A stretch of 63,379 bases of DNA, filler included, from Neolecta irregularis DAH-3 (lineage: Eukaryota), in assembly GCA_001929475.1 (NCBI GenBank). It is 11 parts of 11 records of this genome, joined end to end, with 100 filler letters (N's around TTAATTAATTAA, not from the genome) between each part and the next. Parts side by side here need not be neighbours in the genome. Positions count along the whole stretch, not along the records: positions 6,707 to 22,360 come from LXFE01000561.1; positions 22,461 to 31,849 come from LXFE01004116.1; positions 31,950 to 36,287 come from LXFE01000563.1; positions 36,388 to 37,851 come from LXFE01004120.1; positions 37,952 to 39,509 come from LXFE01000565.1; positions 39,610 to 44,396 come from LXFE01000567.1; positions 44,497 to 54,964 come from LXFE01000568.1; positions 55,065 to 60,573 come from LXFE01004144.1; 3 more parts are not named here. One strand, 5' to 3'. Below, one piece after another: positions 8,173 to 60,480 of this stretch (within the stretch, counting starts at the first letter, position 1; each line of letters begins with the position of its first letter). The notes beneath the pieces are model-generated. The model was not told the DNA's origin and did not search any database. It saw nothing but the letters and a program-made list of their open reading frames with translations. Made by a program: the position numbers and the translations under genes.

Positions 8173-11100
8173 ATGAATAAAGAGGCAAGTCTGTACTGGA
8201 TTATGAATGTAATATTTAGGTCTACAATCGCGTCGTTGAGAGTGAAAATGACATTACGCACGCAAAGACAGCCACAAATGAATCTCTCCAATCTCAATCT
8301 GAAATAATATCCCATACTGAGATCCAACCTCTGCATAAAGATACTTCACAGTTCCTAACGGCCACACAAGCTTTCGCACTTCTCTCGACCCCCTTGGATC
8401 AGATGACCGAAATTGTCGAAAGATCCCCGTCTCCAAAATCATCTAGTCGATTCAGAGAGCTGGGCCACAAGCCATGCACAACAGGAACCCCTTGTCCCGA
8501 AGGCGGGGATTACTCTCGAGGGACGGTTATTGGCGATAAATCAATAGAACCAACTTCGGAAGAGATCGCAGAAGTTCGTCTTCCCTCGGAAGACCTCCCA
8601 CAACAGTTCGATGCCATGAAACACTCAAGCACGCCTTTAGCAGATTTCGAAGATCTTGATCATGCCAAAGATATGCCTCCGGAGGCATTATTCCATGCAA
8701 AACAGTTACGAGATGAACTTGTAACTACCAATAGTCACCCAGAAGACGCGAAAAACCCTCAACCCGTTTATTCACAAGCCTCGCACTCTGAAAATGGTTG
8801 CTCTAATCAACCAGTCGTTCCACATCAGTCGAGTCCTCGTATCAAGGAAGGATTTACTTCTTTGAAGTTGGAAAAACCTTCGACATCGACCCTATTTGAG
8901 AATATTACCACTCACGACGACTTATTTGGAGGTAGCAATGTAGTCGAGGACTCATTTTTCGACCATTTAGAAACGCCCGTTGGAGAAACCAACTATATTC
9001 AGCCCAGTGAGCAGCAAGGTTATAATACCGGCGGACAACAATATGCTTCGCAAGAGCAACAGTATGCATATTTCCAGCAGGACCAGCCGTCGGCTCAGTA
9101 CAACGATGTGCAATCACATGATCATCAAAATACTCAGCAGCAATACCGCTTCGATGCAAGTTATTCTCAGCCAACCGACTACAATCCTCAACCGATTATG
9201 AATCCTCAATATGGCACATATCAAAACCCTCCTCAGTCGTATGCATTCGGTTCTCAAGAAAGTTTCTATAACCACGCCACCGCCAATCAGTCTTCCCCTT
9301 TGGACCAATCCACTATTTATAGCCAAACTCCTGACTCACAGCCGGTACAACCTGTATATTCACAGCAAGATTCGGGTTATAGACCGGTGCCACCGATAAT
9401 AATGTATAATCAGCAATCCCACACTCAACACGACGAACCCATCATGTCGCCCACGACCGCAAAGCGGTTGTTAAATGGCTATGGGGACCCGCCGAATATA
9501 CCATACAGTATGGATCATAAATCGACTTATGGACATAATCAGAACCAGCAATATTATAACCAGCTGCCTCAGTATAGCGCAGCTTATCAATATCAAAGGT
9601 CGGATCAACATCAGTCTCAACTTGCTCCACCGAAAACTCCAAGTCTTCCTCCGTCGACGTTTGGACCACCGGCTCAACCTCAAAGCCCCCATTTAGCGCG
9701 TCCTCAAGATGCTATTTCTCGGATCCAGCAGATACAGTCTGCTCCCTCAACTTCGGATCTTTATAGTTCCCGACCTACTACACAAGACAGCGGAATCCTC
9801 CACCCTAGACAAACGTCCAATACAAGTTCGAATGGAAGCTACCATGGCCACGAATTTAATAGCGGGTTTTATACTCCAATGTCTTCTACTTTCCCAGCTT
9901 CCCCCTTTTATGGTCCTTCCTCTTACTTGTCCCCAAAACGAGAATCCAAAAATGTCTCTGCAAGCACGTCCTTCGTAGCAGCGAAAGGCGGGTATTCAAG
10001 TCCTTACGATCTTCCACCACAGATTGCGAAGCAAAAACCTCGATCTCTCACAACACCGAGTTCGGCGTTGGCATTCAATAATCCAGTCGTACCCTCATTG
10101 CTACCGCCGCCAAAATCTCTGAAAGCTTTTTCTGATGCAGGATCAGAGCGGGGTGGTTCGACAAACACATTTCCCGGGTCTGAGATGCCGGTCCCTAATC
10201 GTGAACCACAAATATATGCACCAATGGAAGAAAATTATCTACATCAACCCCTACAACCTCTACAACAAGAAAAACAATCTCTGGAATCACCATTCATGCC
10301 ATCAGGAGAAACATTTTCCCCGGTCGTTGCGCAGACTGCTGATGCATTTCCACTCGTCATTAATGAAAGCAACGAAGAAATGTTCAAATCTCCGTTTCCT
10401 TCATCTCAATCAATGAAGAAGGAAATGCCCAAATCAGATTATTACAATCCTCGGCGTCACCGACCCCCTTCAATTAGTGAACCGCAAATAAGACACGGTT
10501 ATCAGGGCGACCCTCCCTTACCGCTTTCGGGTCAGACTGTTGACGATTCTCAAAAAGATCCATCTGAAGGATCCGATTATAAGCCATATGGGCAATATGG
10601 TAATTGCCCTCCGACGACTGCCATGAATACGGCTCTGCAAGCTATCCAACAAAGCCGGGAAAAGAAACAGTCCTTCGGCTCTCCACCTCGAACCTTGCTT
10701 TCTTCGGTTCAAAAGCGTGCAATGATGCGACCTTTATCACCAATCTATACTCCTCCTCCGCAGGCTTCTCAAATAAACCCATATTTAAATTCATACGCTC
10801 TTCCTGATGTTGGATCGCAAGAGCCTCTCACAAATGCGAGACTTGCATCCCCTCAAGGTTTTCCACTCTTTGTAATTCTAATATTTATTATGCATTTAGG
10901 AATTACCGATATCCTCGATGATAGTCCCGGGAAATCATCAAGTGAAGGACCGCAAGCTGTACGTGAGGAAGCAAGAGGGGACACCATTGACGATTACTCT
11001 ATCCCAAATGCCGCAATGGACAGCTATGCTCCTATAACGATAAACCCAAATCCACTCGATGAAGGCGATTTTGCTGGTCACGACTCTCAACTGATCGCAG

Positions 11101-14100
11101 AAGAACTCGCTGACGGTTCAGAAAACAACGGGCGATATACTGAAACGAATGCTTACAAACCACTTATTCCAGAACGCGTTACAAGTCCTACGTACTCTGA
11201 TCATTCAATCCCTTCAGGTCCGCCGAAGCGTTTTGCTTCGCCATACTGTCCGGATTCTTATACAGTCTCTCCAGTTATGTCTCCAAGTATTGTCCCTATT
11301 ACCGTTCTTTCGAAGCCCACATCTCCGCCTCATGCGGCATCGCTCCCTCCCCATATCTCTCAAAAACGACCCCATGCAGGTACAAATCCCAGCAATCCTA
11401 AATCGGCATCTTCCCTCGCCCAAATGCAACGTTCCGTAAGTCCCTATGCGCCCTCGGGGCCATCAACAATCCCTTCATTTCCCACTTCAACATACAACCA
11501 ATCCACATACGAGACTCAACAAAAGAATGATCCTTCCGAATATCATAACTTTGGAACCGGCCATCCCCTCATTACATTTGGGTTTGGCGGTAAAATTATC
11601 ACAATGTTTCCTCATCAAATTCAGCGTTATGCAGCTGATGGCTCCACGATATCAAAGGGGGCTCCTGGTTTAATGAATATCGCGAATCTGAGAGATTATA
11701 TCAAGGCTGAAGATCATACCACATTTCCTGGTCCTGTTTACCAGGTCGGTGCTTCAAAGGGCGCTATGAAGGCGAAAAGAAAGGAATGTTCGGCATGGTT
11801 ACAGAATACCATTAACAAGCTCGATAATGAAACTTTTTATGGAACGGAAGTTGAAAGACAGCATTTCGAGCACATAGTTATTCTGTTCAAATTGTTGAAA
11901 GTTTACACTGATCACGAAACTCCGTTGGATGGGTAAATACTCCACGGCTTATGTTAAAGTATTGATTTGCAAGGTCGACTGAGATTGAGGTTGCTTGTAA
12001 GGAGATTTTGATGCCAGGGCTCTCTACACTAAGTCTGGCAAAAAATGAAGATGCCTCATTCACTGTTGCTGCACATCTTTCACAAGGTCAACATTCTCGG
12101 CAAATTTCCGATGGATCTCCTTTGTCACAATACCCTGTCACAAAAGAATTCATTGCATCAATAGGTCAGTCATTGCTCAGAGGTGATCGGGAAGGCGCTA
12201 TTCGCTCCGCTCTGGATAATCGAATGTGGGCTCATGCAATGTTGATTGCAAGTTGCGTGAGTAAAGACCGATGGAAATCTGTCGTTAAGGAATTCGTTCG
12301 AACAGAACTTGAGAATGCAGGAGAAGGAAGCGAGAGCTTGAAGGTTCTTTATGAAGTGTTTGCGGGTCATGGTAGCGATGCAGGTATGCATCTGCCAATC
12401 ATACGGGTACTGATTTTATAGTTGAAGAGCTACTACCTCCTTCATCGCTGTTTGTGCATTCCAACACTCAGGTCGATATATCTGGCCATCTTGATCGATG
12501 GAGAGAAACGTTGACGATGATTTTAGCGAACAAGACTGCTGGAGACACTGAAGCTATTGCTGCTCTTGGAACTCAGCTCGGTAATTTTGGTTTTACGGAA
12601 GCTTCTCATTCTTGGTATTTCATATTTCAGAGTTCAATTTTCTGATATATATTAGTTATATCCTCAGCCGAGATGTGTCTACTTTCGAGGCCATTGATGC
12701 GCCCAAAAAGAACATGGTTCTGGTCGGAGCAAGCCACGAAAAATACCCATTCGATTTCTATCGTGATCATGATGCAATAAAACTAAGTGAAATATATGAA
12801 CTCGTCAAGTGCAACGGGCCAACTGGAATGCAAGGAATACCGCATCTGCAAGCCTATAAGCTGTACTACGCTTGGATTCTTTCCGATTTTGGAATGACTT
12901 CAACTGCTCAAAGGCAATTCCGCGTGTTGCAAATCTCTGACTTCAAGATACTGCGAAGCTATCGGTAGCATAATACACAAGTCATCCAAGAGCTCGGCAC
13001 ATTATCATCCAGCACTGGTTTCCCAACTACAGGAATTGTCATCGCGTTTGATGGACTCGCCTGATTCGTACGAAGCAAACTCTAAAGGTTGGACTACTAC
13101 ACTTTCGCGGAGCAAATTCGACAAAGTCCTCGGGTCTCTTGAAGGCAAATTTAAAAATTTCGTGTCTGGCGATGAAGAACCTGAGGGTGGACGTCGAAGT
13201 TTTGAGGGTGCAGACACCAAAGGACCATTTGCTAGAATTGCATCAGATACCGGAACAATAACAAAAGTAGCCTCCATGAGTTCATTACGCGAATCGTATA
13301 CTCTTCCGAGTTCGACATATGGGAATGACTCATATCCTATTCCTCACCAGAATCTTACCCGAGCGGTTAGTTATGGTGGACATCAACCAGTCCCTCATTC
13401 ATACCACCCTCCGAATCCCTATGAACCAATGCAACCTACCATTAATGACCCTCCTTCATTGTCGATGACAAGACAAAATGAGTCCTATCAATACGAAACA
13501 CCTCCGACTTGTGCTGGTGGGCATTTACTGAATGTTAATACCCCGGCTGGAACATCCGCCGAAGATGATAATAGTCAGTTCTTGACACCTATGCACGGCC
13601 CACCACTTCCATCTTCTAGTTCACATCAAAACGCGACCGTTGACTCGAAAGAAACAGATTTTGTTGACGACGAGGAAGATGACTTGGGGCTGGGTACAAC
13701 AAGAAAGAAAAAAGTCGAAGTACGAGACAAGGAGGAGAAGGAGATCAAGTCGAAAAAACCTGTTCAAGTGAAGAAAGAAGCAGATGAGTCGGGTACTCCC
13801 ACGGCATGGAAACATGATCTGACTCTTCAAGATAAACCTGCTGCAGGCGGTTGGCTCGGTCGTATTTTTGGTAAAGGTATTGCTAAACAAGATCAAGGGG
13901 GAAAGGTTCATCGAGTCAAGTTGGGAGATGAAATGAAGTTGGTCTACGACGAAAAACTCAAAAGATGGGTCAATCCCAATGTACTTGCCCAATTTTGTGG
14001 CGATAGTAACATGCAGAACAAGGAAGCATATATGGCAGAATCTGCTCTTCCTCCTCCGCCACCAAGGAGTCGATCAGCGACACCGGGTGGGGAATCAACT

Positions 14101-15130: not shown

Positions 15131-15134
15131 TTGG

Positions 15135-26823: not shown

Positions 26824-29599
26824 TTATAATTTCGGGACCGTCGAATTGGGATCATCGGATTCGGATTGACCGACGAGAAGTCCGATTGTTTGGACAACGT
26901 CCACTGGTTCGAGAATATGCCAGGATGCTGCGGTCATTTTGCTAGATGCACCAACGGTTGTTGCGAAACAGTACTTTGGGGGCGGTTCAATCATTCGAAG
27001 AGCTCTAAACATGTCTGATACAAGTCAGCAAACATCATCCATGTCTAAACGAACCTTCGTCAGTTTTATCATCACCGGCACAGAAGATGAATTCCACTGG
27101 ATCAGTCTCTGGAAAAGAGTTTATGAGTTTTTTTACAATTTCTCCCTTGTTGATATGTATTGGCCGAACCTCGAGGTTGGCTTTGCCAGTCAGGACTTCG
27201 ACATCATGCTTGGAGGTGATATTGTTCTCCAGATGATGTTGACATTCATGGGCTTGGAAAGCACCATAGTCTGGATCGGCTCGCCTGTAATGCCAAGTCA
27301 ACGCGCACCGCTTTCGTTCTACAAATGACCCTGATGTCAGTACGAGAACGAGATAACGTCGTGCCTTGGGTTCTTTCTGTGTAATACTGAAAGATCTCTA
27401 AAACATCCTTTTGCCACGACATATCCAAATCTGCAGTCAAGTTCACCCACTCCTCTTCACCTGGATATCGCATAAAACTCCCATGCTCGGCACTGTGTCC
27501 GGGTTATAATGTGAGATTTGGGAAACAAACCTCAAGCCAAGTCTAGGAATATTCCCCATCCAGTCTTCTAGAAACCTTTGATCGCGACCGGAAATTATCC
27601 AGACATGATTATTGCGATCCGCACTTAACAATTTGAGACTTCGTAGCATTCTATCGGTGGGAATTGCAGCACTTGGATCTCGCACGATAGGTGTAAGTGT
27701 ACCGTCGTAATCAAACATGAGTAAACGCTGCCGGGCACTTTTGTAAGCAGATAAAAGTAATGGTTTATCAAGGATGGGTGTCAACTGAGATTGATCGCGA
27801 GCCGAAAGGTTGACTTGAAGCCGTTCAAGAAATCCTCTAGTCCATGCTTGGACAGTATGAGTGGTAATGTGACCAAAGAGTTTGCTTTGTAAACTTCGTT
27901 TCTGATCTTCAGGCATATTAAGAGCGTCGTTGATGGTTTTGGCAACACCCTGATAACATCAGTGGCCGCGTAATGAGGGAAACATGCTCTTCCATCCCAG
28001 GGATTAACCTGGAGTGCGTCGCTTAGACTACCGGCAGTCCCAGTAAACTAGATTTTCAGCAAACATTCTAGTGAAGATTACAAACCTCTGATAAGATTAC
28101 AGGTCCGTTGTGAACATTTTGGCAAACGACGTACTCTAGGCCGGTCGTGTTCATTCCGTCTCGAACAGAGGTTATCAGTCCAATATCAGCAACGCGGAGA
28201 AGTGCAAAGTATTCGTCGGCGTCAAGATATTGATGATAATGGTGTACAGGGGTAAAATCTAACGAACCATAGAGACCGTTGATGTGAGATATCAGCTCCG
28301 ATACTTTTCTTTCGAGCTTGGGTGTTGCAACTGTAGCAGGGGTGGTGACCTGAATCAGAACAACCTGGGAATGAGAAATGAATTAATTAAAGGAGTGCTA
28401 CTTTATGTCTCCATTCGGGATAATGTTCGAGAAAGATCTCAAATGCGCGAAGTTTTTGGAGAACTCCCCGAACTTCATCAAGACAGTCTCGACCAACGAT
28501 GATTTTCTTGCCAGTGTATAATTCTCGAATGGCCTCCATTTTGGGGAGGACGCCGGGTGCTTGAGAATCACGCTCAACACGAGCAGCGTCGATTCCAATT
28601 GGATATACTTCGACTGCCACACGGGCGCCGTAAGCATCAACGCCAGAAGGCGTTGATTCAAAGCCGAGGACTCGGGAACAGCTACTGATGAAATGTCTTG
28701 AATAAGCATAACTTTGAAACCCGATAGTGTTTGCGCCCAGCATTCCCGAGAGAATCTCTTTCCTTCCTATAGATAAGAAGAATATGTATATAGACACTTA
28801 CTGGGCAAGCATCGAAAGTACTCTGAAGAAGGGAAAGGTGCATGCATGAAGAAGCCTATTTTGGCATTTGGTATCCTCTGCCGAAGAATTTGTGGGAGAA
28901 GCATGAATTGGTAATCGTGAATCCAAACTGTTTGTTCAATCAAGGGCGATATAGCGGAGGATTACTAATATCGCCAGGCTTGTGGATTTCCTCAATCTTA
29001 TCCGCAAAAGCTTGATTGAGGCGGATGTAGTCCCTCCACCAGGACTTTTCTTGCCGACCGTCTGTAGCGTCTTCCCAAAGGATGTAATGCAAGAGGGGCC
29101 AGATGACTGCGGATCAGTCCATTGCAGAGCAAGAATATACCTCGCTCGGCGTACATTCTCCACCGGCCCTGGCTCTCTGTTGATCCGAGAACATCGGTGC
29201 CCATCCAGACAGGCACGATTTCTTCCCCGCCCTGTGTATTTACAAGCCTGGCGAAAGCGGACTTGTCCGAGGGTGTGATTTCACAAGTAGCGGCCGGGTC
29301 ATTGGCGTTTCTGGCGAGATCGGGAGCGAGGGCCAATTCGCCCGTCCAGCCGATGAGCTTTGTGTCGAACTCCTTCTGGGCGCCGAGCCACCGGAGACTG
29401 CTGTAGAGCGCCGAGTTCCCGCGGCGCGGCACGATGTCCTGGGAGTGAGGAGGCGCGAAAAGGGCTGAGCAGGTACCCAGGCGCGGTCTGCGGGCGCAAA
29501 AGAGGCCTCGAACGGGACCAGCAGGGTGACCGCGAGGACTCTGGGGCGCGGGGCGCCGTTGGCCGGGTGGAGCAGGGCAGCGCCGTTGGATCCGGCCAT
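26824..29599 (-). CDS. TPS2: Trehalose-6-phosphate phosphatase subunit (GT20 plus HAD domains)
   Basis: RRGNSALYSS, WIHDYQ, FMHAPFPSSEYFRCL, GMLGANTIGFQSYAYSRHF, SVRDGMNTT.LEY, FDYDGTLTPIV, ISGRD, GKANLEVRP, CAGDDKTDEDMF. Confidence 0.95.
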
Positions 29600-31964: not shown

Positions 31965-34900
31965 ATGCCGCCCTGCCCGCTCGCGGCTGCCGCAGACCTG
32001 CTGGCCCGCATCGCCTGCGGCGACCCTGTCGATCCTGCCCCTGCCGTCCTCGATGCCCATCCCGCCCTCGCCGCCGCCATCCGCGCCATACACGCCCGCC
32101 TCGCCCCGCAGCCCTCCCTCTGCGCCACCACCCCCTGCATCGCCCCCTCCCTCAACGCCACGGCCTCCCGCAACTCCCGTGATCTCTCCCTCGACACCCT
32201 CCAGCAGGACCTGCATCTCATATTTGCCCGCATGCGCGACGACTGGGCCCTCTCCTCCGCAGACATCGTCGCCCGCTGCTCAGCCCTCCTCTCCCAGGAC
32301 TCCCCCTCCCCCGTCCCCGCGGAAATGGAGGTCGTCCAGCTCAAAAACACAAACGAGGCCTTCACCACTGCCCTCGGCGAGATCATAGAGGTCGTAAAAG
32401 CGGTCGCAAAGGGCGACCTCTCAAAGACCGTCACCGCGGAACACGCAAACCCCATGCTCGCAGAACTAAAGGTCCGCCTTCCCGTATCCCTCTGACCCCA
32501 GGTCACTATCAATGCTATGGTCGGCCATCTCCGCACCTTTGCTTCAGAAGTCACCCGCGTCGCCCGCGAAGTAGGCACCGAAGGCATCCTCGGCGGCCAG
32601 GCTAAAATTGAAGGCGTAGAGGGCACCTGGAGGCAGCTCGCCGACAATGTATGTCCGCACTGGTCGCCCTGACAATAGGTGAACGACATGGCTCGCAACC
32701 TCACAGACCAGGTCCGCGAAATATCCTCCGTCACTACCGCTGTCGCAAGCGGCGACCTGGTGCGTCCATTTGTCGCCCCTCTTACACTAGAGCCAAAAAA
32801 TTGAAGTCCACGCAAAAGGCGAAATGCATGTACCCTTCTCGTCTCTGCTCTAACAGCAGTCTGTTGCTCAAAACCACTATAAACAACATGGTCAATAGAC
32901 TAAATGTCTTTGCCTTTGAAGTCACTCGCGTCGCACGAGAAGTAGGCATAGACGGCAAACTAGGCGTCCAGGCAGAAGTCAATGATGTCCACGGCACTTG
33001 GAAAGAAATTACCTCAAACGTCAATACCATGGCCACAAACCTCACAAGCGTATGCCCCCCTTCTTCTCTGCTGATTTCAGCAAGTAACTATTGCTCTCCT
33101 CTGATGCTCACTCAAGGTTCGGCCTTTCCCCATGTCCCATGCTCACTCAAGGTCCGTGCTTTTGCTCAAATCACCGCTTCAGCTACAGATGGAGACTTTA
33201 CCAGATTCATCACCGTCGAAGCCTCTGGAGGTCGTTCTTCTTTCTTCGATATATTAACAGCAGAAATGGACACTCTTAAAACCAAAATCAATCAAATGGT
33301 GCACAATCTCCGAGACAGTATCCAAAAGAACACCCAAGCAAAAGAAGCTGCCGAGCTCGCTAATAGAGCAAAATCAGAGTTTTTGGCAAATATGTATGCT
33401 GCCTGCTATCCTTTTCCAACTCTAGGTCACATGAAATTAGAACACCCATGAATGGGATAATTGGAATGACCACCCTGACTTTGGAAACCGAATTAACCCG
33501 CGCTCAACGAGAAAACCTGCTCATCGTGCAAAACTTGGCCCATTCCTTGTTGGCCATCATTGACGATATCCTCGATATCTCAAAAAGTGTCCCCTCTGCA
33601 TATTGGACTAACAGTTAGTCGAGGCAAATCGCATGAACGTTGAACAAATCCCCTTTTCACTACGCGCCGCCGTATTTGGAGTTCTTAAAACGCTGGCCGT
33701 AAAAGCTACTCAAAAAGATCTTGCGTTGAATTATGACGTTGATAATAACATCCCTGATCACGTCATTGGAGACCCTCTCCGTCTTAAACAAGTCATTACA
33801 AACTTGGTTGGAAATGCCATTGTACGAGTATTTATTTTCTTTCTGACTGTAGAAATTCACTGACCAAGGCCATGTTGCTTTGAGTGTTCGTATGGAGCAT
33901 AATACAGTCACCGAACCCGGTTCTTTGCTTTTGAAATTTTGTGTTGCTGATACGGGAATCGGTATTCCTCAGGACAAGAAAAAGATCATTTTTGGCACGT
34001 TTGTCCAAGCTGACGGATCCACCACTCGAGTATTTTTCAGATAGTGTTATGCTGATTGTAGAAATTCGGCGGAACGGGTCTTGGCTTGTCGATTTCGAAA
34101 AACTTGGTAGATCTCATGGGTGGCGTAGTTTGGGTCGAAGGAGAATATGGCAGTGGAAGTCAATTCTACTTTACCATTAAATTCAAAGAAGGCGAACTTG
34201 ATATTAACGCTCAAATGCAGCAGATGCAATCATTCCACGGACGGTCAATCTTATTTATTGACGTCCTTCGAGACCAGACTGGGGTCGCTTTAATCATTAC
34301 TAAATTAGGTCTTGTACCACATGTCGTTCATTCAATTGAAGAAGCGAGCAATTTCCCTAAATCGACTCTTTTCGATACGATCATCGTAGATTCGTTGGAA
34401 CCAGCCATGAAACTTCGCGAAGTGCAAAGTCTACGGTATATCCCTGTGGTCCTCTTGGCTCCCTCGATACCAAATTTAAACCTCAAAAGTTGTCTTGATC
34501 TGGGAATTACGAGTTATAGCAATACGCCTACCGACATTGGAGATCTTTCTTCGGCGTTGTTACCTGCCCTTGAAAGTCGAGCATCCCCCTCTAGTTCCGA
34601 GAACCCCAAAACGCTAAATATACTTTTAGCTGAGGACAACGAAGTGAACCAGAAACTAGCTGTAAAGATTCTGGAAAAGTACAAGCACAAGGTTATTGTC
34701 GTTGATAACGGACAAGCTGCTGTTGAAGCAGTAAAGGGCGACCAGGATTTTGACGCAATTTTAATGGACGGTAACGTGATTTTCCAGCATACATGGCTAA
34801 ATACCAGTGCAAATGCCTATTATGGGCGGCTTTGAAGCAACCGGGTTAATTCGAGAATGGGAAAGGGAAAATAATCGTCCGAGTTTACCTATAATCGCTC

Positions 34901-46304: not shown

Positions 46305-47604
46305 ATGTCTGCGGCGAATCACTGTCCTTTAAATCCTTCCGCCTCTCCAATTTCGACCTCTGGAGATTACTCCAGGACGCCGGATTATACATATTGTGAT
46401 CGCAAGGCCGAACCTTTATGGCCTCGAATTCGAAGGTCTCTCAGAGAGCCGTTTGCTGAGTTTTTGGGTTGTATGATTGTATGTTTTTTTTTGTTCAACT
46501 TTGTTGTTTAATACGTATAGTTGATCATCTTTGGGACTGGTTCAGTCGCCCAGGTCGTCCTTTCAAAAGAAACCAAAGGCTCTTACCAGTCAATTTCCTG
46601 GGGTTGGGGAATTGGCGTCATGTTTGGAGTGTATGTATCTCCTTATTATGGTTACAGCTGACCCTTTTAAAGATATATTGCTGGTGGAATCAGTGGAGCA
46701 CATTTGAACCCGGCAGTAACACTCGCAAATTGTGTTTTCCGAAAATTTCCGTATAAAAAGTTACCAAGCTACATCGCTGCTCAGGTCCTTGGTTGTTATG
46801 TCGGTGCCGCCATTATATATGGCAACTATCGATCAGCAATTGATCAGTTTGAAGGATATGGAATTCGAAGTGTTCCTCCTAGAGAGACTGCCACCGCTGG
46901 CGTATTCTGTACCTATCCGGCTCCATTCCTCACTCGAACCGGCCAGTTTTTCTCCGAGGTTATCGCAAGTGCCGTTTTGATGATGTGTATTTTTGCCATT
47001 GGAGACCAACATAATAATCCCGCCGGAGGCAATGGCCCGTTGATACTATTTTTCCTTATTTTTGGAATTGGTGCCTGCCTTGGATGGGAAACTGGCTATG
47101 CGATCAATCTTGCTCGGGACTTCGGGCCTCGATTGTTTACTTTTACGGCTGGATACGGTACTGAAGTCTGGTCTTCTGGAAATTATTACTTTTGGGTATG
47201 TTCATAATTTTGGTTCTTGGTCTAATTGTGAGATTCCGATGGTCGCTCCTTTCTTCGGATGCCTTCTCGGTGGCGGTGTCTATGATTTCCTCATTTTCAC
47301 CGGCGATTCACCAGTCAATAAACGCATCTCAGTATCTGCAGATACAGAATCTCGACCTGGCTCCAGCGATATAACTCTGTCCAAGTGTAGTGCTGCGATT
47401 ACAGACAAGAATCTCTCCAAATGTAATACTGCGATTACTGACAAAAATCTTTCTAAATGCAATGCTGCTATTACTGACAAGAATCTCTCCAAATGCAACG
47501 CTGCTATTACTGACAAGAATCTCTCTAAATGCAACGCTGCTGTTACTGACAAGAATCTCTCCAAATGCAACGCTGCGATCACAGACAAGAATCTCCAAAT
47601 GTAA
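46305..47604 (+). CDS. Aquaglyceroporin (MIP family; 4 exons)
   Basis: REPFAEFLG, ISGAHLNPAVT, TAGVFCTYP, GWETGYAINLARDFGPRL (NPA and NLA motifs), YYFWIPMVAPFFG. Confidence 0.96.
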
Positions 47605-47615
47605 TGCGGCTATCG
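47377..47615 (+). repeat. Coding tandem repeat, 36 bp (LSKCNAAITDKN), six units plus a partial seventh
   Basis: Six in-frame units. The seventh has a 2-bp deletion that creates the stop codon. Confidence 0.95.
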
Positions 47616-48562: not shown

Positions 48563-50639
48563 CTACATCTTACTAGCGTTTTTTCCTCCCTGGATCTGTA
48601 TAGGGAGCATTCTTCTCAGGATCTTTCCGCTAGGGTTCCTTGGAACAGCATCAATGAGATGCACGCCACCTCTCAGTTGCTTGTATCCCGCCACTCGTTT
48701 ATCGGCCCAACGCTGGATTTCTTTGCATGTTTGCTGATTCCGATCTTCCTCCGCAAGAACAACATAGGCCAGAGGAACTTCAGTTGCTTCCTCAGGACAA
48801 TAATATGCGCAAACAGCGGCATCAAGGACTTTAGGGTGTGTGAGAAGGAGACCCTCAAGTTCAGCAGGAGGAACTTGAAATCTGACCATGCTTAGATAAT
48901 CTCGGCGAAAGGTTAGTCATACCCCTTGTATTTTATTAGCTCTTTCTTGCGGTCAACAACGTAGCAGAGACCGTTTTTGTCGATATAAGCGATGTCTCCA
49001 CTACTGTACCAGCCATCAGAAGACAGCACACCAATATTGTTGAGATCACCAACATAACCCCTGGATTATCGGTCAGTTTCTATTAACAGAGCATACATCA
49101 TGACATTCGGCCCTCGAACCAAGAGTTCCCCAGTTTCGTTAATCCCGAGATCTTTTCCAGTGTTGTCATCAACGATACGAGCTTCCCTAGATATTCAGTT
49201 CAATAAGGGGGAGAAAGGAACATGTTGGGAACCAGCGTCCCGACAGTTCCAGTAAATCCGTGATCAGCAATCCGTTGCAGGTGGGTTACTGGGGAAGCTT
49301 CTGTCATTCCGTACACTGCGATGGCTAAACATATTTCAATGACACAATTTACTTTGAAGAATCCTAGAGCGTGGTAAACGAGCCATAAGCCGTTCCTGGA
49401 GATCCTTCTACGAATATTAGCAGGGAAGGACAGTGATTTGTACCTTGAGTGGTGCAGCAGCGCAAGAAAGGACTTCTAAACTGGACAAGTCATATTTTGA
49501 AACCACTGGTGATGTAGCAAGTGCTAACGCCACTATAGGTGTGAGACGTAGTACCTCATGGTACTGGTACCAGGAGGGACAATATGCTGCCACGTTGCCT
49601 TGTATTTCTCAATTAACTAGTGAGTCACCAACTGCTAAGCACCCTAATACCTGGCAGAGCCTTTCTATCTCAAAAGCATGTAGAGCAATCACTAAATTCC
49701 CAATGTAAGGACATAAGCAGAGTACAATCCCTACGCCATATATATGGCAGACTAGAGTTAACAAATGTTCTTGTGAAAGAGCATACAAGGCTAGATATTA
49801 GCAAGGTATACAGACGAGGAGCAGAACACACAGGAAAGAAGACTTCTCTTGTGCCAGCATGGACCTGTTCTGGGTCTTCCGCAGCAATTTGCATAGAATT
49901 GGCAATCATGTTGTGGTGGGATAGTCGAACGCCCTTAGTGTTTTAGATACAACTAGTTAGTGGATTTATGCTTGCCTTGATAGTCCCCGTTGTGCCGCTG
50001 CTGAGGCCTATGAAAGCCTGGACCTCTCTGTTGTTGGTACATCTGAATGGTGGTGCTCGCTCTTCGCCAATAAATGAGTCTATCTGGGCCTTCAATGAAG
50101 AAATCGGGGAGGTATACGTTTGGATGATGGGCAACGCTGTCGACCAGGATCACGATTTTGGGCGAGATGAAGCTGTTGGTCTTGGATGCAATGGCGAGAG
50201 CCTCCTGGACCTTGTCTAGAGCCAGAGGATGGACGAAGATAAAACCGGGATTTGAAAAGGAGAGAGCATATTCGATTTCCGTGGCGGTGAGTGCCGGGTT
50301 TATGGGACTGTATGCTCTTAGTGAATATTGCTGGTGGAAGATATGATACGCAACAGCTGCTCCGGCCCAGAGCACGCCGTGAGTTGCCAAGAAGAAGTCG
50401 ACGCAGTTTGGAGCAATAATTGCTGCTGCATCACGCTCGCGCAGTCCCGCCGCCTTCAGCCCGGCTGCAAGTCGGGCTGCAGTGTCCCGGACACCTCCAA
50501 AAGTCACCTTCTTGGTGGATAAGGTATCCTCCATGATAACTTTACCTGCATGCACATTATATGGATTGCTTTTGATCAACCACTCTGAGATAGAGCAGTC
50601 TGTGGGAATGGAGATCGTTTGACTGGCCTTGAATATCAT
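48563..50639 (-). CDS. 4-coumarate/phenylacetate-CoA ligase-like AMP-binding enzyme with PTS1-like -SKM
   Basis: [80 protein letters not shown] and C-terminal ASKM. Confidence 0.93.
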
Positions 50640-51283: not shown

Positions 51284-54200
51284 ATGCCAGTGCCCACGTT
51301 TGACACACTGAGACGCGAGCAATCCTTTAGGCATCCGCCTACAGATGTTTCGGCATTTCCAGCATTACATGAGGCTATCTCGCCCCATATTGATTCATTC
51401 AATGCTATGACCGAGGAAAGACTATTGGAAAAGGCAGTTGAGGACATTGGAAAGAAATGTGCTTTCGACGGTCTAGATGGGAAGCTAGGAAATAAACTTT
51501 CATGCAAGATCCTAGAGCGAACAACACATTGCTAAATAGACAAGTCTGGGTTTCAGAAGTGCAGATATCGAAACCTATGGTCCCCGCAAAAGATCGCGCA
51601 TCAATTAATCGCAAAGTTTATCCTAGCGAGGTATGGAGTAGTTACATTATGCTTTCTCATCACAGTGCCGAGAACGATTAACGTCATATCGCGGTCGATT
51701 AATTCTTCAACTTAAATTACAACTGAGCGATGGGATCGAGCATACCGAAGCTAAAGATGCCGGCCCATTACCTATTCTCGTGCGCTCAAACCGATGTCAC
51801 ACACAAAATCTCCCACCATCAGAACTTGTCTTGCGTGGAGAAGAATCTGAAGAATTAGGAGGTTATTTTATTGTTAACGGGATCGAAAAAGTGGTCCGCA
51901 TGTTAATTGTCACGAAGCGCAATCATCCTTTAGCTATTGTTCGACCTTCATTCGCCAATAAGGGCAAAAATTACTCTCAATTCGGAATTCAAATTCGATG
52001 TGTCAGAGAAGATCAAAGCGGCCAAACGAACACTCTCCACTATCTCACCGACGGGACCGCTGTTTTACGGTTCAGCTGGAGGAAAAATGAATACCTTGTG
52101 CCATTTGTCATGATTCTTAAGGCATGCGTGGACTGCAGCGATAAAGAAATCTTTGACGCAATCGTCGGTACGGAAAAAGACAATACGTTCTTAACGGATC
52201 GCGTGGAATTACTTCTGAGGGGCTACAAGCCGTACCAGTTATATAGCAAGAAGGAAACACTTCAGTTTCTCGGCGAAAAGTTTCGCGTGGTTCTCGCTGT
52301 TGCAGAAGATATGTCAGATGAAGACGTTGGTGGAGAACTTTTACGAAAGATTATACTTATTCATCTAAAGGACTGGAGAGACAAATTTCGTTTATTGATG
52401 TACTCTCACTTTCAACCCTCAGATCTGATACTTAGCTTCACGATTCGCAAATTATATGCCCTTGTTGCTGGAGATTGTGCTGCTGACAGCCCTGATTCCC
52501 CTCAACATCAAGAAATTCTCCTCGGCGGTTTTCTATACAACATGATCATCAAAGAAAAAATCGAAGACTATCTTAATGCTCTGCGACAGCAAATGTTGCA
52601 AGATGTATCCAAGAAAACTGCGAATTTCCACGACAAAAAGTACATTAGTAAAGTCTTTACAAAAGTTAACGCAGATATTGGTTCCAAGTTGACATATTTC
52701 TTGTCTACTGGGAACCTTGTTTCCAATAGTGGTTTAGATTTACAGCAGACGACAGGATACACTATTGTTGCCGAGAAGATTAACTTTTATCGATATCTCA
52801 GTCACTTTAGATGTGTTCATCGAGGTAGCTTCTTTGCTGAACTCAAGACAACAACAGTACGCAAGTTGTTGCCTGAAGCTTGGGGTTTGTTCCTGCTTTC
52901 CAGCCCTGATTTCTTCCCATTCTAGGGTTTTTATGCCCCGTTCACACGCCCGATGGATCTCCTTGTGGTCTTCTCAACCACCTTGCCCATCAGTGCAAAG
53001 TAATTACTTCTCAGCCGGATGTCTCAGCTCTCCCGTCTCTTCTTGTTAATCTCGGAATTTCTAAACCCTCCGTTATTCTCACATCGGCTCATAAAGTCTG
53101 TATACAACTCGATGGGAAGATCATTGGCTGGTGCACACATAACTTGGGAAAACACATTGCGGAAACACTTCGTTATTGGAAAATTAATGACGAGCATAAT
53201 GTCCCGAAAAGTTTAGAAATTGGATATGTGCCTAAAAGTAATGGTGGTCAATATCCAGGTCTCTATCTCTTCTCGACTCCCGCTCGAATGGTTAGGCCAG
53301 TACGACATCTGGCTACCGACAAGGAAGATCTTGTAGGACCTTTTGAACAAGTATATATGGAGATTGCTTGTATGCCTCAAGATATTCACAAAGAAACGAC
53401 GCATATCGAATTTAAACCTTCCAATATGCTCAGTATCATCGCAAATCTTACTCCATTCTCCGATTTCAATCAGAGCCCTCGCAACATGTATCAATGCCAG
53501 ATGGGTAAACAGACCATGGGGACTCCCGGCAGCGCAATAGCTAAACGCACGGATAACAAGATATATCGTCTCCAGACTGCTCAGACGCCTATCGTTCGTC
53601 CAAAGCTTCATGACATTTATGGATTTGATCATTATCCGAATGGAACAAATGCAGTTGTAGCAGTGATAAGTTATACTGGATATGACATGGAAGATGCTAT
53701 GATTCTCAATAAGTCTGCACATGAGCGTGGTTTTGGATACGGCACATTGTACAAGTCCGAAATCGTCGATCTTTCTAAATATGGGAAGGGAACTGTCCAT
53801 TTCGGTTTCGGAACAAACCGCATTGAACGCTGGAGACAGACGTTGGACGAGGACGGGTACCCTATGCTCGGAGCTAAACTCTCCAGCGGTGACCCAGTTG
53901 CTGCATATTGGGATGAAATAACTGGACAAACCAAGTGCGAGACATATCATGGAACCGAAGATGCATATATCGATGAAGTGCGCTTATTAGGTAACGATAC
54001 TGGTGACTCGGAATGTCAGATTATCCACGTTAAACTTCGGATCACTCGATCGCCTACGATTGGTGACAAATTCTCCTCTCGTCATGGACAGAAAGGTGTT
54101 TGTTCTCAAAAGTGGCCAGCGGTCGATATGCCTTTTACGGAGAGTGGAATGCAACCGGATGTGATCATTAATCCCCATGCCTTTCCTTCCCGTATGACTA

Positions 54201-54948
54201 TTGGTATGTTTGTTGAGAGTTTAGCTGGAAAGGCTGGTGCCTTGCATGGGATGTGCCAAGACTCAACGCCATTCACGTACAAAATTATTTAAAGTTTATC
54301 ACCTTTTACAGTTAGATTTAATGAGGAAGATACTGCTGCAGATTTCTTTGGGCATCAACTCGTCAAAGCGGGATATAATTATCGCAAGTGTTTCCAGTTA
54401 GAAATCATCCTTACGATTCAGATGGGAACGAACCTATGTATAGTGGCATCACCGGCCACGAAATGTACGCAGATATCTATATCGGTGTCGTCTACTATCA
54501 GCGTCTTCGACACATGGTCAACGATAAGTTTCAAGTTCGAACAGTTGGTCCCATCCATAATCTCACGCACCAGCCTGTGAAAGGTCGGAAGCGAGGAGGT
54601 GGTATTCGTTTCGGAGAAATGGAACGCGATGCTATCATTGCTCACGGTTCTTCTTTCATTCTTCAAGATCGCTTGCTCAATTGCTCCGATTATACCCAAA
54701 GCTGGATCTGCAAGGCTTGTGGAACATTCTTCGGTATTTGTTCGAGTGTGGGTTTTGATTCTAAAGTTCGTTGTCGTGCGTGCGCAATGACCGCTACCGG
54801 GTTTGAAGACGGGATTTGGGAAGATGGACAGGGAAATAAGTGGGTTGGCGGTGAGGATGTCACCGTTGTTACTCTTCCCTATGTCTTCAAGTATCTTACA
54901 GCGGAATTGGCCGCTATGGGTATCAAACTTTCTGCTAAAATCGAATGA
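51284..54948 (+). CDS. RPA135: RNA polymerase I second-largest subunit
   Basis: FDTLRRE..FRHPP, PHIDSFN, GGYFIVNGIEK, SHFRCVHRGSFF, LCPVHTPDGSPCGLLNHL, NQSPRNMYQCQM, GDKFSSRHGQKG, YYQRLRHMVNDK, RFGEMERD. Confidence 0.98.
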
Positions 54949-55867
54949 TAATTAAAAATTGTTANNNNNNNNNNNNNNNNNNNNNNNNNNNNNNNNNNNN
55001 NNNNNNNNTTAATTAATTAANNNNNNNNNNNNNNNNNNNNNNNNNNNNNNNNNNNNNNNNNNNNATCCTCACGGCCCGATCGATCAAATACTCCGCAAGA
55101 AGAGCTAGTGAGCTCAATGAGGAGATGTACCGAAGGGATGAGGCTCCGTAGAGGAAGGAGCCAATAGGCAGCAGCGAAGCGCGCCTCAAGGAATTACTAT
55201 ACAAGTAGGTCCGCGTCTGACTAGCAGAGGGACTTTAACCGTGTAAATTGATTATAAACGTAGTTACCTTTACTCAAAGTAGCTGCCGTCTTATCAACAT
55301 ACCAACCTAAGTCCACGAGCGACAAAAAGGAACACCTGAACGCTCACATATATGTTAACCAGTCCATCTATCCAATAACATCTAGCAGAGCTGGATCGAA
55401 ATTTTTATCAAGGATGATTTCCTCGACACTTGATTAAAGGAGTCTAGAAGTATATATAGATACATTCCTGTTGACTTGGGATATCAGCGATTTCATCCTC
55501 TCTCTATTCACGAACTGGGGCAAGATCAGCAAACACATCGGAATCCAATGTCGTTCAAAAATTCAGTGCAATGGCCGTTCGATTGAGAACGGATTTGATG
55601 AATGTCAAGAACAGTGTGAGTCTAACATTGTGGATTTATGAATATAACACTATTTGGCATAGGGTCAGATCATTTGAGCAATCAAAGATTGAATTATTCT
55701 CAAAGATGTGTTGGTGAGTTGGGTCTCCATATTGGAGAGTGAAATCCAGAGATAGGCAAGTCGACAGATTAGAGGAGCCACAATTTTGCCGCCAATTTTT
55801 TTCCGGTTCCCTACCACAGGTTATCCCAATTCAAACTACCAATCCATATCTTTCCTTTTCGGATAAA

Positions 55868-56774
55868 ATGTCCGCTTCAATCCAGGTATCCGTTCTACTG
55901 CATCTCTTGTACTCATGATTAAGAATCTGCGATCCAGATTATTCACTAGAGGAATTCGTAAGACGAGACTGCTACAACCAAAATCTCCGAAAACGCCCTC
56001 CCCGCCAGATCCAAAGGTTCCAAAGGTTCAAACCACGGGTAAAACAATCATTTCTGAGATAGTATGAACATGTAGCTTCTTTGATTTCACCCCCACGAGT
56101 GTTAACGACACTTCATGCCTTCCCTTCCCTAAAACCCATGTCGTTTACAACCTACCCTAGCGAATTTCTCGATCTTCGGACGCGTCGGGATATTTTACAT
56201 CGGGCAGTCGTATTTGAAGCAGATGCAGCGAGACAAGGAACGGCAAGTACAAAGACTCGTAGTGAAGTCCGTGGTTCAAACATCAAGCTTAGAAAGCAGA
56301 AAGGCTCTGGAAGAGCTCGAGTTGGTGACCGAAGAGCTCCGCAGAGAAGACATGGTTTGTTGTAATGTTTAGAACGGATCTAACAAGAAAGGCGGTGTTG
56401 TATTTGGACCAAAGCCCAGGGATTTTTCCACCCATTTACCGCGGAAAGTGTACCAGCTAGCATATCGAACGGCTCTCTCGGTAAAATACAAACGAGGCAT
56501 TCTTACTGTACTTGAAAACCATGCAGGAATATCAACATTCAAAACGCAACATATCCTCCAATTATTACAGTTTCATGGATGGACAAAGGAGAATGGAAGG
56601 GTGTTGATTATCACGGACGATCGGCGGAGGAAGATTGAACTTGGGATGCGGAACCTCGGAATGCATGGACATGTCAAGCTCAAAGAAGATATAGAAGTGC
56701 GAGATCTGCTCAAGTACGAAAGGATTATTATAGAACGGAAGGCGTTGGACTGGCTGCAGGAAAGAACAACTTAA
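55868..56774 (+). CDS. YML6: Mitochondrial ribosomal protein uL4m
   Basis: [72 protein letters not shown]. Confidence 0.94.
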
Positions 56775-56898
56775 TGGATGCTCAAGTATATAGCGAGGTA
56801 AAAGAGGGGTCGGAGTTTCCCGGAAAAAAATAAAAAAGTTCACGGTTATTCCTGCCTCATAAACCATCGTCATTTGTTCCACTTTGTGATTGTATCCA

Positions 56899-58215
56899 AT
56901 GACCTCGCTGCGTCCGATCGATCGGTTCCTCCTTTCCTGCTGTTGCAATACCCAGTGGTTTTCACGGCAGTTCTCAGTTCAGCGGTGTCTTCAAAATATT
57001 GCCGCCGAGCTCGCTCCATCAACTGAGCAACCTGTCCTTCTTTCTGTCAAAGCAACAGAGAAAAAGCAAGTAGCGTCATCACCCCAATCATCTACCTCTC
57101 AAACTCTCCCCGAATTCAAGCGAAAATCACCACCATTTCGTTGGCCAAAGACCGGGGTAAATCCAGCATATGATGAAGCCTTGAAAATCTTGGATGAAAA
57201 CAGACTACAAATTGGGAAAAGAATCAAAATTCAACAAACCCGTATTGCGGCGAGGATAAAAAGCAAATTCCCGACGTGAATCATGGTTAATTTGGGGTAG
57301 TAATCGAAACAAGACCAGATAAAGCAGCTACATTGATTGATCTTGAAGAGCATCTCGAAAAACTCAGAGTATTACAGGATAAGGACAATCCCGAGATTCG
57401 TTGGAAATTTTCCAAGGGCTATGGTTTATCAGTTTTATGTGTCGAGCTAATACTAGTGAATTTGGAACGACCTATTTATCGCTATCTATCCCAAGAAAAA
57501 TGGAAGTCGAGAGCTCTTCCTATACTCTTGCAACGTCTTGAAACGATGAACGTCATTCCCGATACGTTGCCATCAATTAAACCTATCGTCGACGTCAAAC
57601 TACGATTTCCTGGTGAAACGTATGAGACTGAAGATGGATGGATGGAGCCGGGTGTTTTCGTGACTACTACCATCGCAGAGAAGATTCCCATACTTGAGAT
57701 TATCCCGTTTATTGAGGGCGAAAAGAAGTATACCATCTGCATGATCGACCCAGGCACGTTTTGAGTAGCTTCAAGAGTCAGTACTGATTTGCATAGATGC
57801 CCCGGATATTGAAAAAGCTGGGTTCACAACGTTGTTACACTGGCTAGTGTATGCCGCCCTGTATATCTACAACCTAATCAAATACAGAACAGACATTCCC
57901 ATCACACATCTGTCGCACGCAGTCAACCTGTCCAACGGCAAAACTCAGCTCCCGTACCTCCCGCCCCATCCATACAAAGGAATGGAATACCACCGATACA
58001 CGCTTTTTGTGTTTGAACAGCCCGCATCAACGCCTGGCCTGCCTGAGGCCCCTCCGCCACCCCGAGAACATTTCGATATCCGGTCGTTTATGGAGGAGCG
58101 GCGACTACAGGCAGTCGGAGCACATATGTTTCGAAGCAAGTACGACGACTATATGCCGCTACTAGTACAAAAGTATGGCCTGGACTGGAAGGCATTTGAG
58201 CGGGAGCAGGCATAG
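56899..58215 (+). CDS. MRPL35: Mitochondrial ribosomal protein mL38 (PEBP domain)
   Basis: NPAYDEAL, NPEIRWKF, PIYRYL..EKW, LQRLETMNVIPDTLP, MIDPDAPD..FTTLLHW, YLPPHPYKG..YHRY, GAHMFR. Confidence 0.94.
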
Positions 58216-58229
58216 AGCTGGTATATGAG

Positions 58230-58312
58230 TATTTGTGCGTATTGCGTATTGTGCGTATTGTGCGTATTGTGCGTATTGTGCGTATTGTGCGTATTGTGCG
58301 TATTGTGCGTAT
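58230..58312. repeat. (GCGTATTGT)n minisatellite in the 3' region of MRPL35
   Basis: About eight 9-bp units. Confidence 0.95.
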
Positions 58313-58632
58313 TTGTAGGCGTGTATACATATTGGACAGGGTTGCGCAATGGATGAGTGTGGCTGCAACGCCCATGCGCTTGGACCTCGTGTCGGGCTTC
58401 GNNNNNNNNNNTGTAGGCGTGTATACATATTGAACAGGGTTGCGCAATGGATGAGTGTGGCTGCAACGCCCATGCGCTTGGACCTCGTGTCGGGCTTCGC
58501 TTGTTTCAAACCTCCACCTCCATCTTCCTCCATATCTCGCTGAATCTAAACTCCATCCGATTTCCTATTTATTAGCCTCGCCTCCTATTAGTTATCTGAT
58601 CTATTTATTGACCATCTCCTTACTATCGCCCT

Positions 58633-60480
58633 ATGGCATCTATGCCAGAAGCTCGCATTATGCGAGGTACCTCTCCGCTTACAGCGGTTCTAAATGTTCA
58701 GTGAAAATCCTTTATACATTTGACGCTGCCCACCAACTCATCTGCATTGCGCGTCCCGCGTCAGAGCTTTTGGCTCATATCATTCCCTCGGACAGCAATA
58801 TACGTGTTGGCCTCGTCGATTTACAGGCATGTGTCTCCGCCATTTGTGTTGCAAGGTATCTCCCGCGTGGAGTTTCGCGTTTTGACGTGTTTTCAGTCCC
58901 GAGCTGATATCTGACCACTGCACAGAGTATACAATTTATTCCAAGGATCTTATCGAGGTTGGTGAGCCATTGACTGGCCATGGCATGCTCAGAAAGGTTT
59001 TGGCTGAAGGAAACGAATTAGTCATGGGAAAGATTGCCTTGATGCCCGAGATGAAGGACGGGCAATGGGCTCAAGTGGAAGTTATCACAATTGGTCTGCG
59101 CTTCTCAAAAGTATGTTCTGGGAGCTGTTGTCAATTGATGGAATCAGGTTGCTATTCCCCCAGAAATTCAAGAACATTCGATCGACCCTGTAACGTGGGC
59201 ATCTTGGCTCCGAACCGTTGCCCATGGCGAAGCTACGCAATTGAAAGCGCGTCCGAAGACAGCTGAAGGGCAAACTGATACCGATTCGCGGGATTCGAGT
59301 GCTGCACCCTCGTCTAGGAGTAGGGGACGATCCAGGTCTCGAATGAAGAATGCAGCGCCTTGTGATGTTGACTTTTCTCAACCCTGGCGAGTCGAACAAA
59401 ATCATGATACACCCGCTGTCAATTCTTCGCCGCCAGTTATTTACGATAGCCCCCAATTGCCTCCATATGCGGAGAACCAAGAGAATACCCCTGATGAACT
59501 GATTCTGCCTTGTGCTGTAGAAGAGGGGAAGAAGGAACCTTTGCAGAAAGCAAACGCTAAAGAGCTAATGAATCCTCGGTCAAAGGACAAGATTGAAGCT
59601 AAACTGATAAAATCCATTGCGGAAGGCATGAGATGTTGAGATGAGACCCAGCTTACAGACAGGTAAGATGCCGATGTTTTGCCATAACTGCGGGACTATA
59701 AGAACAACAGCGTGGAGGAAAGTCAAAGATGACGAGGGAAATGAAATGGTGCTGTGCAACCGTATATATTTCCTTCCACTGCTGTGCTCACTTTTGTCAG
59801 CATGTGGACTTTACAGTGCTAAATGGGGGAAACTGCGACCGCAGAACTTTTGGGAAAAGGATGAAGAGGCGAAACTCAAAGTATCGCGAAAACGAAAGAA
59901 ATGTGATGAGAATGCGGACGGGAATCCACGGGCACGAAAGAAGATGCATACGAGGCCACCGACGATGATGGAATTATTACAACCTTGTAGTCAGCCAAGA
60001 CAGATACAGTCTTCGCCTGTTCGGAGGAAATTTGAAGTGGGGACACCGCGCGAACCTCTATCCGAAATGGATTCTTTTTTCAACAGCCGACACCGAGCAA
60101 AAAAGGTGGCGACGCTTGATAAGGAGAACGAATGTCCTAAAACAGCGGAAGCGAAATCCGAGATTGACGTTCTCTTGCAGACGCCAACCAAGTCGACGGG
60201 CTCGAAAACATCACCTCGAGTGAATCTCTCTCCGTGGCGGACCAGCCTGTTTAGCCATACGAAAATTGCTACACCTCTGACGGTTCGAAAGTCATTTGAG
60301 TCGGCGCTATATAGTTCACCGCCGCAGCTATGCACCGACAAGACCAATTTTTGGAGCGAAACGCCGACGAGTCCAGTTGTGCTTTCTATAGCTGGAACAC
60401 TAGATTTTGAAGAGTTTTTTAAGAATCCTGGTGATGTGCTTGGAAGTGATATTGCCGGATTTTTAGGATCTGAGATGTAG
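58633..60480 (+). CDS. ams2: Ams2/Spt21-like GATA zinc-finger transcription factor
   Basis: N-terminal [42 protein letters not shown], and GATA finger [14 protein letters not shown]...LCNPCGLY..KWGKLRP. Confidence 0.85.

Follow-up and report, generated by a model that had tools for sequence, protein, structure and literature searches.

The stretch of DNA analysed here (the window; 63,379 nucleotides (nt) of Neolecta irregularis DAH-3 in 11 joined parts, 45% G+C) carries genes for SEC16, TPS2, a NIK1-type histidine kinase, an acyl-CoA-ligase-like protein, RPA135 and MRPL35 as well as a gene with a GATA zinc finger. An earlier note on this DNA had claimed that 10, probably 11, introns in these genes begin with GC and keep the reading frame. 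At the DNA level this was borne out: each of the 11 stretches starts with GC and ends with AG on its strand, is 34–43 nt long and leaves an open frame once spliced. Together with a wider sample of the genome they indicate that about one in 16 introns of this fungus is of the GC-AG type, roughly sixfold the fungal norm and genome-wide, as far as DNA sequence can confirm it. The eleven introns are listed below, with the donor written as exon/intron and the posterior probability taken from the gene model described further on.

8185..8219, + strand: SEC16, after the first four codons; GAG/GCAAGT, 35 nt, probable GC-AG intron
12914..12947, + strand: SEC16 central domain; AAG/GCAATT, 34 nt, posterior 1.0 in both model versions
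27331..27364, − strand: TPS2; AAG/GCACGA, 34 nt, posterior 0.99
27950..27987, − strand: TPS2; AGA/GCATGT, 38 nt
32826..32859, + strand: NIK1-type histidine kinase, HAMP repeats; AAT/GCATGT, 34 nt, posterior 0.98–0.99
49934..49975, − strand: acyl-CoA-ligase-like gene; AAG/GCAAGC, 42 nt, posterior 1.0
51504..51544, + strand: RPA135; CAT/GCAAGA, 41 nt, posterior 0.55–0.97
54384..54421, + strand: RPA135; ATC/GCAAGT, 38 nt, posterior 0.88–0.98
57263..57300, + strand: MRPL35; AAA/GCAAAT, 38 nt
57754..57796, + strand: MRPL35, at DP/DAP; CAG/GCACGT, 43 nt
59626..59662, + strand: just before the GATA zinc finger; AAG/GCATGA, 37 nt, posterior 1.0 in both model versions

Junctions of the eleven introns

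Frame-keeping GT-AG and GC-AG alternatives were enumerated exhaustively and scored against homologues. Full-length homologues settle six of the eleven junctions and a Pfam domain settles a seventh, the weakest case being the site at 8185. In TPS2, of which one exon is 100% identical to the N. irregularis protein P0151, the GC junctions rank first against 40 homologues both at 27331 (176.7 against 155.3 for the best GT) and at 27950 (120.7 against 76.4). The RPA135 junctions rank first against 14 homologues at 51504 and against 16 at 54384, where the score is 125.4; a GT at +6 reaches 115.5 and would add two residues within GYNYxGNE. At the RPA135 position and phase of the 51504 intron another fungus (locus L128) carries a GTAAGT intron, which points to an old intron position. 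The MRPL35 introns were compared with P0278, a protein of 384 residues which is 90% identical to the query exon; its contig is just 1326 nt long and P0278 is therefore probably the protein of a relative from a spliced transcript. Against it the GC junction of 57263 ranks first and is colinear (107 vs 82), and that of 57754 ranks first and matches at DPDAPD, no competing GT-AG pair being available within the range tested. When P0278 was used to scan a metagenome, no relative was found among 160 pattern matches.

The SEC16 exons flanking the 12914 intron cover positions 140–228 and 230–298 of Pfam PF12931; since only position 229 is skipped, the split codon of this intron fills it exactly. In the histidine kinase the junction at 32826 was ranked first against the internal HAMP repeats, at low scores. 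For 49934 no GT-AG alternative exists within the tested range, and the intron lies inside what we take to be the SSGTTGxxKGV motif of the acyl-CoA-ligase-like gene; its short exons drew no match from Pfam or PDB, and nothing useful came from PDB searches with short exons of SEC16, MRPL35 and the ligase. At 59626 an in-frame GT at +9 would leave an intron of 28 nt, below the minimum of 30 nt among 1157 confidently called GT introns. The exon that follows this intron (from 59663) opens with GTAAG, so that the acceptor doubles as a strong donor-like site. The intron at 8185 reached a posterior of 1.0 with one version of the gene model (class-specific matrices) and was uncalled with the other (shared matrix); it has no homology support, and the SEC16 start could be a later Met.

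Frequency of GC-AG introns

The N. irregularis assembly comprises 14.18 Mb in 4542 contigs. A self-trained gene model, in which GT, GC and eight decoy dinucleotides were permitted as intron starts, was applied to 725 kb (~5% of the genome) consisting of the N-free pieces of the window and stretches of 11 contigs; the 11 claimed GC sites were not supplied during training. Several of the long contigs had been taken from a listing of GC pattern matches, which inflates the GC count slightly at most. Two versions were run, one with a donor matrix shared by all classes and one with class-specific donor matrices. The former yielded 1357.7 GT and 90.7 GC introns of 1457 expected introns (decoys 0–3.2 each) and the latter 92.5 GC of 1477.7 (decoys 0–5.9 each). 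The GC share is 6.2% (confidence interval (CI) 5.0–7.6%) in the 725 kb and 6.0% outside the window (82/1376), well above the fungal mean of 1.009% (PMC7072748, Table 1). An in silico conversion of all called GC donors into GT brought the estimate for GC down to 0.0. Furthermore, the density of 1478 introns in 338 modelled genes agrees with the genome paper, which gives 5,546 genes and 4.3 introns per gene with support from RNA sequencing (PMC5309816).

Within the window the model recovered 8 of the 11 introns with exact ends using the shared matrix and 10 using class-specific matrices; the intron at 57754 was missed. The 11 GC introns stand among about 102–103 introns (~10.7%; P 9e-9 vs 1%, P 0.045 vs 6%). 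The earlier estimate of 10–11 in ~100–120 introns, an excess over the usual ~1%, thus holds for the window; the excess extends beyond it, at a wider rate of 6.2% and not 10%, and therefore the window's 11 introns are an upper-tail sample of the genome rate.

A model-free, genome-wide pattern search compared with the reversed pattern gave 127 vs 80 matches for GC, 242 vs 155 for GT and 179 vs 238 for GA and GG together. Thirty GC pattern matches were fetched and 11 of them were called as introns, which fits the net excess of 47. An early regular-expression count over 140 kb was discarded as too noisy.

When acceptors other than AG were allowed (~1480 introns), TG reached 7.2 and the other acceptor classes 0.2–3.1, and GA donors amounted to 8.5 in this run and to 2.3–3.5 in the other runs. 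Few introns with a GA or GG donor or a TG acceptor were called confidently (contigs C3033, C1807, C313 and C2660 of G000); predicted examples are a GA-AG intron of 38 nt on C3033 and, on C2660, three introns ending in TG. A splice-site tolerance beyond GC donors is suggestive only.

Intron anatomy and donor strength

Confident calls comprise 1157 GT and 67 GC introns, a set that favours strong donors. The GT introns have a median length of 37 nt (5–95% range 33–44 nt), and lengths and phases of the GC introns are alike. The branch A lies ~8 nt from the 3′ end and 25–35 nt from the donor, and the branch motif YTRAY was found in 78% of the 67 GC introns compared with 58% of the 1157 GT introns. 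Acceptors of the GT introns include 202 AAG and 43 GAG.

As a class, GT donors hold no more than 2.4 bits of information outside GT itself (+3A 75%, +4T 52%, +4A 17%, +5G only 44%), which supports the relaxed recognition of 5′ splice sites put forward in the earlier note. The 67 GC donors carry 4.4 bits (+3A 97%, +5G 73%, +4A 37%; 90% and 64% for +3A and +5G in soft counts) and match U1 at 3.8 of 7 positions compared with 3.1 for GT donors (P 3e-7). GC donors are consequently weak by general standards and strong for this genome. GCAAGT occurs in 12 of the 67, and AG precedes the donor in 33%. In the window +3A is found in 11/11 and +5G in 9/11 donors, and 9 of the 11 differ from GCAAGT, as had been noted; the idea that nothing compensates for the C did not hold, given 4.4 bits in GC against 2.4 bits in GT donors. 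Among GT donors, −1G and +5G are negatively associated (odds ratio 0.55, P 1e-6). In 49 of the 67 confident GC introns no GT could serve instead with the frame kept open.

A high G+C was ruled out as the cause, the interior G+C being 37.6% in GC introns and 37.0% in GT introns. No sequence family was detected among the 67 GC introns (all-against-all best pair median 3, maximum 9, compared with 7 for 67 GT introns). Regarding their class, the ends, the restored frame, the branch point near the 3′ end and the better U1 match than in GT introns are those of U2-type GC-AG introns; the ~1% rarity and the near-perfect GCAAGT, both typical rather than defining, are absent. Traits of U12-type introns (an RTATCCTT-type donor and a CCTTAAC branch) were not found, the GC matrix being GCAWGN with YTRAY, in an analysis that did not extend to a search for minor small nuclear RNAs (snRNAs).

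Dependence on U1 complementarity

With class-specific matrices the GC share rises steadily with the number of U1 matches, being 0, 1.2, 2.7, 4.1, 8.5, 16.8 and 29% at 0–6 of 7 matches; under the shared matrix it climbs from 0 to 21%. Where positions +3 to +6 read AAGT, GC accounts for 16.4 of 44 donors (37%; CI 22–52%) or 14 of 42 (34%), near the neutral C/(C+T) ratio of 38% in intron interiors. At ATGT, the commonest GT donor, the share is 9%. Since it reaches the neutral level at G?AAGT, we infer that C at +2 costs little beyond one U1 base pair in Neolecta, and about nothing when +3 to +6 are fully paired. Experiments on human genes point in the same direction, GT>GC changes being tolerated where the donor has stronger U1 complementarity (10.1101/479493).

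For comparison, metagenome loci around RPA135 were analyzed with the same code. A pooled model of all 80 loci had to be dropped as the decoys (0–64) were as high as GC (50). Two subsets were used instead: eight loci (60 kb) picked for short introns, and 41 loci among L151–L207 with a G+C of 0.47–0.57, from which seven had been removed by hand; the remaining 31 of the 80 lie outside both. In the 41 loci, which belong to other fungi and whose introns measure 57 nt, GC reached 9.3 of 365.5 introns (confident 4 of 269, all AG/GCAAGT), and at AAGT 4.1 of 50.8 (8%) against a neutral 53%.

A short-intron clade that seems to keep GT

The eight short-intron loci (L131, L132, L134, L135, L137, L139, L143 and L170) form a deep ascomycete clade from soil, which may be Archaeorhizomycetes, with 100% support for the six of them included in a quick tree; deep nodes of this tree are unresolved, including the placement of the clade relative to Neolecta. 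The two share four RPA135 intron positions. Introns of the clade are as short and as donor-weak as those of Neolecta (median 35.5 nt, +5G 33%), and their acceptors show similar shares of AAG (13/100) and GAG (2/100). Only 1.0 of 101 donors was GC, or 1.2 when the prior for GC was held at 7%, compared with 6.1 expected under the Neolecta context model (P 0.016); after deduplication 1 of 86 remained against 4.8 expected (P 0.047). Modest as its size is, this test shows that GC is not inflated by the code. It suggests that short introns and weak donors are a shared background and that the excess of GC is peculiar to Neolecta. Donors that are weak in general thus seem insufficient, because an equally weak-donor clade has ~1% GC.

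Splicing machinery

The earlier note had suggested altered U1 or U6 snRNAs or U1 proteins as the cause. A single U1 gene was detected, with the canonical ACUUACCUG 5′ arm and a divergent body (43.7 bits vs the Rfam cut-off of 69.5), and a search for a variant U1 with a pattern leaving the base opposite +2 free returned one genome-wide match, with the canonical A, in this fragmented assembly. U6 carries the canonical ACAGAGA box. The proposed snRNA change is consequently unsupported, because the U1 arm and the U6 box are both canonical. As a side observation, the U6 gene (L002:269–417, − strand) is interrupted directly after AGAAGAUU by a GT-AG intron of 50 nt that has a branch motif; U6 introns are known in S. 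pombe (PMC10581693).

Among the proteins, the zinc finger of U1C is conserved with YLTHDS kept, SNRNP27K keeps RQYMNR including Met141, and Luc7 is present. A Prp8 core of 370 residues (human residues 1307–1676) differs at scattered positions only, and its NQIPNRRFTLWWSP stretch is identical. The proposal thus found no backing in the examined parts of the U1 proteins or Prp8 either. The main Prp8 gene (C2538) is split across small contigs and 417 residues were modelled; partial matches to the U6-binding domain of Prp8 were also seen on L118 (G000:C4303) and on G000:C2568, the C4303 piece looking broken. METTL16 is present and looks intact, with what are presumably its MHPRN start and NPPF motifs.

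Explanations for the excess

The favoured reading, to which we assign a probability of about one half, is that these are ordinary U2-type introns in which a GT>GC donor mutation is tolerated, its cost being paid almost only at U1 pairing. Old U2-type introns would mutate from GT to GC at the donor; the C at +2 would cost a single base pair with U1 where the threshold is low, and the later U6 and Prp8 steps would hardly distinguish U from C at +2 in the Neolecta lineage. Most likely a difference in a protein, an RNA modification or proofreading outside the examined parts would lower this later penalty. Several points weigh against this account. No causal change was found in U1, U6, U1C, SNRNP27K or the Prp8 core where examined; U5, U2, Prp28, Prp16/22, Snu114, Snu66, Prp39/40, the N-terminal part of Luc7 and the remainder of Prp8 lie outside this set. 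All intron evidence consists of DNA-level sequence and gene models. Only one GC intron (51504) was shown to occupy an old position, the AAGT class counts just 44 donors, and the control loci are all RPA135 neighbourhoods and partly redundant. Finally, sequence statistics combine population size and cost, so that a smaller cost and a stronger drift are inseparable in them. The cause of the excess would accordingly seem to lie between a trans-acting change and drift.

A stronger version, which we hold to be possible though clearly less probable, is that the Neolecta spliceosome has lost a check on the U at donor +2 that follows U1 recognition, so that GY would be the true donor code. This code would perhaps be part of a wider tolerance that includes the rare GA donors and TG acceptors, in a spliceosome that favours U at +4 even though METTL16 and SNRNP27K are retained. 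If it were true, comparison with GT-keeping short-intron relatives would point to the GT-enforcing factor.

Only slightly behind, yet still doubtful, stands drift with an unchanged spliceosome, in which a small effective population fixes slightly harmful GT>GC mutations where the rest of the donor is good. It would agree with the lack of a machinery change in the examined parts, with the other weak intron ends (AAG and GAG acceptors in 202 and 43 of 1157, and, depending on the model, ~7 TG acceptors and 2–8 GA donors among ~1480) and with the gain of GC donors in mammals, where 298 GT>GC changes compare with 40 GC>GT (PMC2490688). Full neutrality at G?AAGT would nevertheless need very weak selection, and the short-intron clade with equal donor weakness and similar AAG/GAG acceptors has 1 GC in 100.

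According to a ruler model, the distance from the branch point defines these very short introns and the donor sequence is nearly irrelevant. The compact architecture speaks for it: 90% of the introns measure 33–44 nt, the branch A keeps 25–35 nt from the donor, and over the final 12 bases of exons the frequency of GTA drops by half (0.005 vs 0.010). However, the clade of the same architecture contains 1 GC in 100 instead of the 6.1 expected, and 39 of 75 GC introns pass over a GT within the window of 30–46 nt. We consider this model unlikely; a ruler may be a necessary background and does not seem sufficient.

RNA editing, either C-to-U at +2 of the pre-mRNA or adenosine-to-inosine at the U1 base opposite +2, would yield a GC-specific tolerance with unchanged genes, but the graded dependence on U1 matches is what an unrepaired mismatch predicts, which makes editing very improbable. 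More improbable still is a variant U1 or U6 snRNA that pairs with GC: the divergent U1 body and a copy hidden by the fragmented assembly could be invoked, against which stand the canonical pairing arm of the one genome-wide U1 copy, the canonical ACAGAGA of U6, and the high-GC algae, which too keep a canonical U1 arm.

Introner-rich algae show high GC-AG shares. An introner-like spread of GC-ended introns, for which these shares (PMC3033335) would be a precedent, or assembly and gene-modelling artefacts, for which the 4542 contigs might speak, are already largely refuted, as the interiors of GC introns are no more alike than those of GT introns and share their lengths and phases, the decoys are near zero, the same code gives 1–2.5% GC in two other fungal sets, and homologues fix six junctions.

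Comparison with known systems

With the U2-type GC-AG introns known from fungi, animals and plants the Neolecta introns share the ends, YTRAY, the better U1 match than in GT introns and canonical U1 and U6. They differ in their share (~6% vs 1%) and in the low frequency of GCAAGT and of AG before the donor. The excess thus appears to be a real variant of a known intron class, with the pairing regions of the snRNAs apparently unchanged. High GC-AG shares have been reported for Aureococcus (39.6%), Micromonas pusilla (22.2%) and Chlorella (7.7%), likewise with a canonical U1 5′ arm, and their cause was left open by the authors (PMC3033335). Aureococcus and M. pusilla are rich in G+C (69.5% and 65.9%; PMC3033335), unlike the Neolecta window (45%) and introns (37–38%), and the Neolecta GC introns, set against those algae, show no repeat-like similarity.

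Eurytemora affinis and Oikopleura dioica, with GA and GG donors, resemble Neolecta in a lineage-wide tolerance at +2 that breaks annotation (PMC7072748, PMC5714493). What Neolecta tolerates is chiefly C; the share of GA and GG is at most ~0.6%, a model-dependent value. The negative association of −1G and +5G, as expected for two donor classes, is shared with the METTL16/SNRNP27K +4 system of Saccharomycotina (PMC10581693). Neolecta is an exception to the association described there: its donors are dominated by +4T (52%, with +4A at 17%) despite METTL16 and Met141 of SNRNP27K (loci L114/L115 and L116), although +4T is described as generally incompatible with N6-methyladenosine in U6 (PMC10581693).

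No prior report pairing Neolecta with GC-AG introns was found in the literature searched, which did not cover subscription papers, and searches for GC-AG introns in Taphrinomycotina and for Neolecta splice sites gave no title on this excess. The main text of the Neolecta genome paper does not contain "splice", "intron" or "GC-AG" (PMC5309816), and Neolecta is absent from the one per-species supplement file of PMC7072748 that was searched.

What enforces the GT rule, and how lineages escape it with an unchanged U1, has been an open question (PMC3033335). Neolecta, whose base composition is ordinary for a fungus, is a case of such an escape; a nearby short-intron clade seems to keep the GT rule, and a comparative test is therefore possible.

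Consequences for annotation

The public models of TPS2 and MRPL35 are wrong at all four GC introns checked. In TPS2 the model reads through the intron at 27331 and, for that at 27950, takes a GT 21 nt upstream, deleting the conserved NPWD. In MRPL35 a GT 21 nt upstream of 57263 is used and the model ends at the stop codon inside the 57754 intron, resulting in 257 instead of 384 residues without the PEBP half. At least one GC intron was found in 71 of the 338 modelled genes; scaled to 5,546 genes with 4.3 introns each, ~1,500 GC introns are expected by extrapolation. Conclusions on domain or gene loss in Neolecta therefore need rechecking.

Further features of the window

In the histidine kinase gene three introns were called at 33050–33151 (+ strand), with an exon of 3 nt in one of the gaps between them and none in the other; the terminal 13 bases of the last two are identical, as if tandem duplicated, and one longer intron or recursive splicing may be present instead. 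Intron pairs flanking 4-nt micro-exons were observed at 24825–24900 (+ strand) and 49752–49831 (− strand). At the end of an aquaglyceroporin-like gene (47240–47605, + strand) a unit of 12 residues is repeated in tandem about six times.

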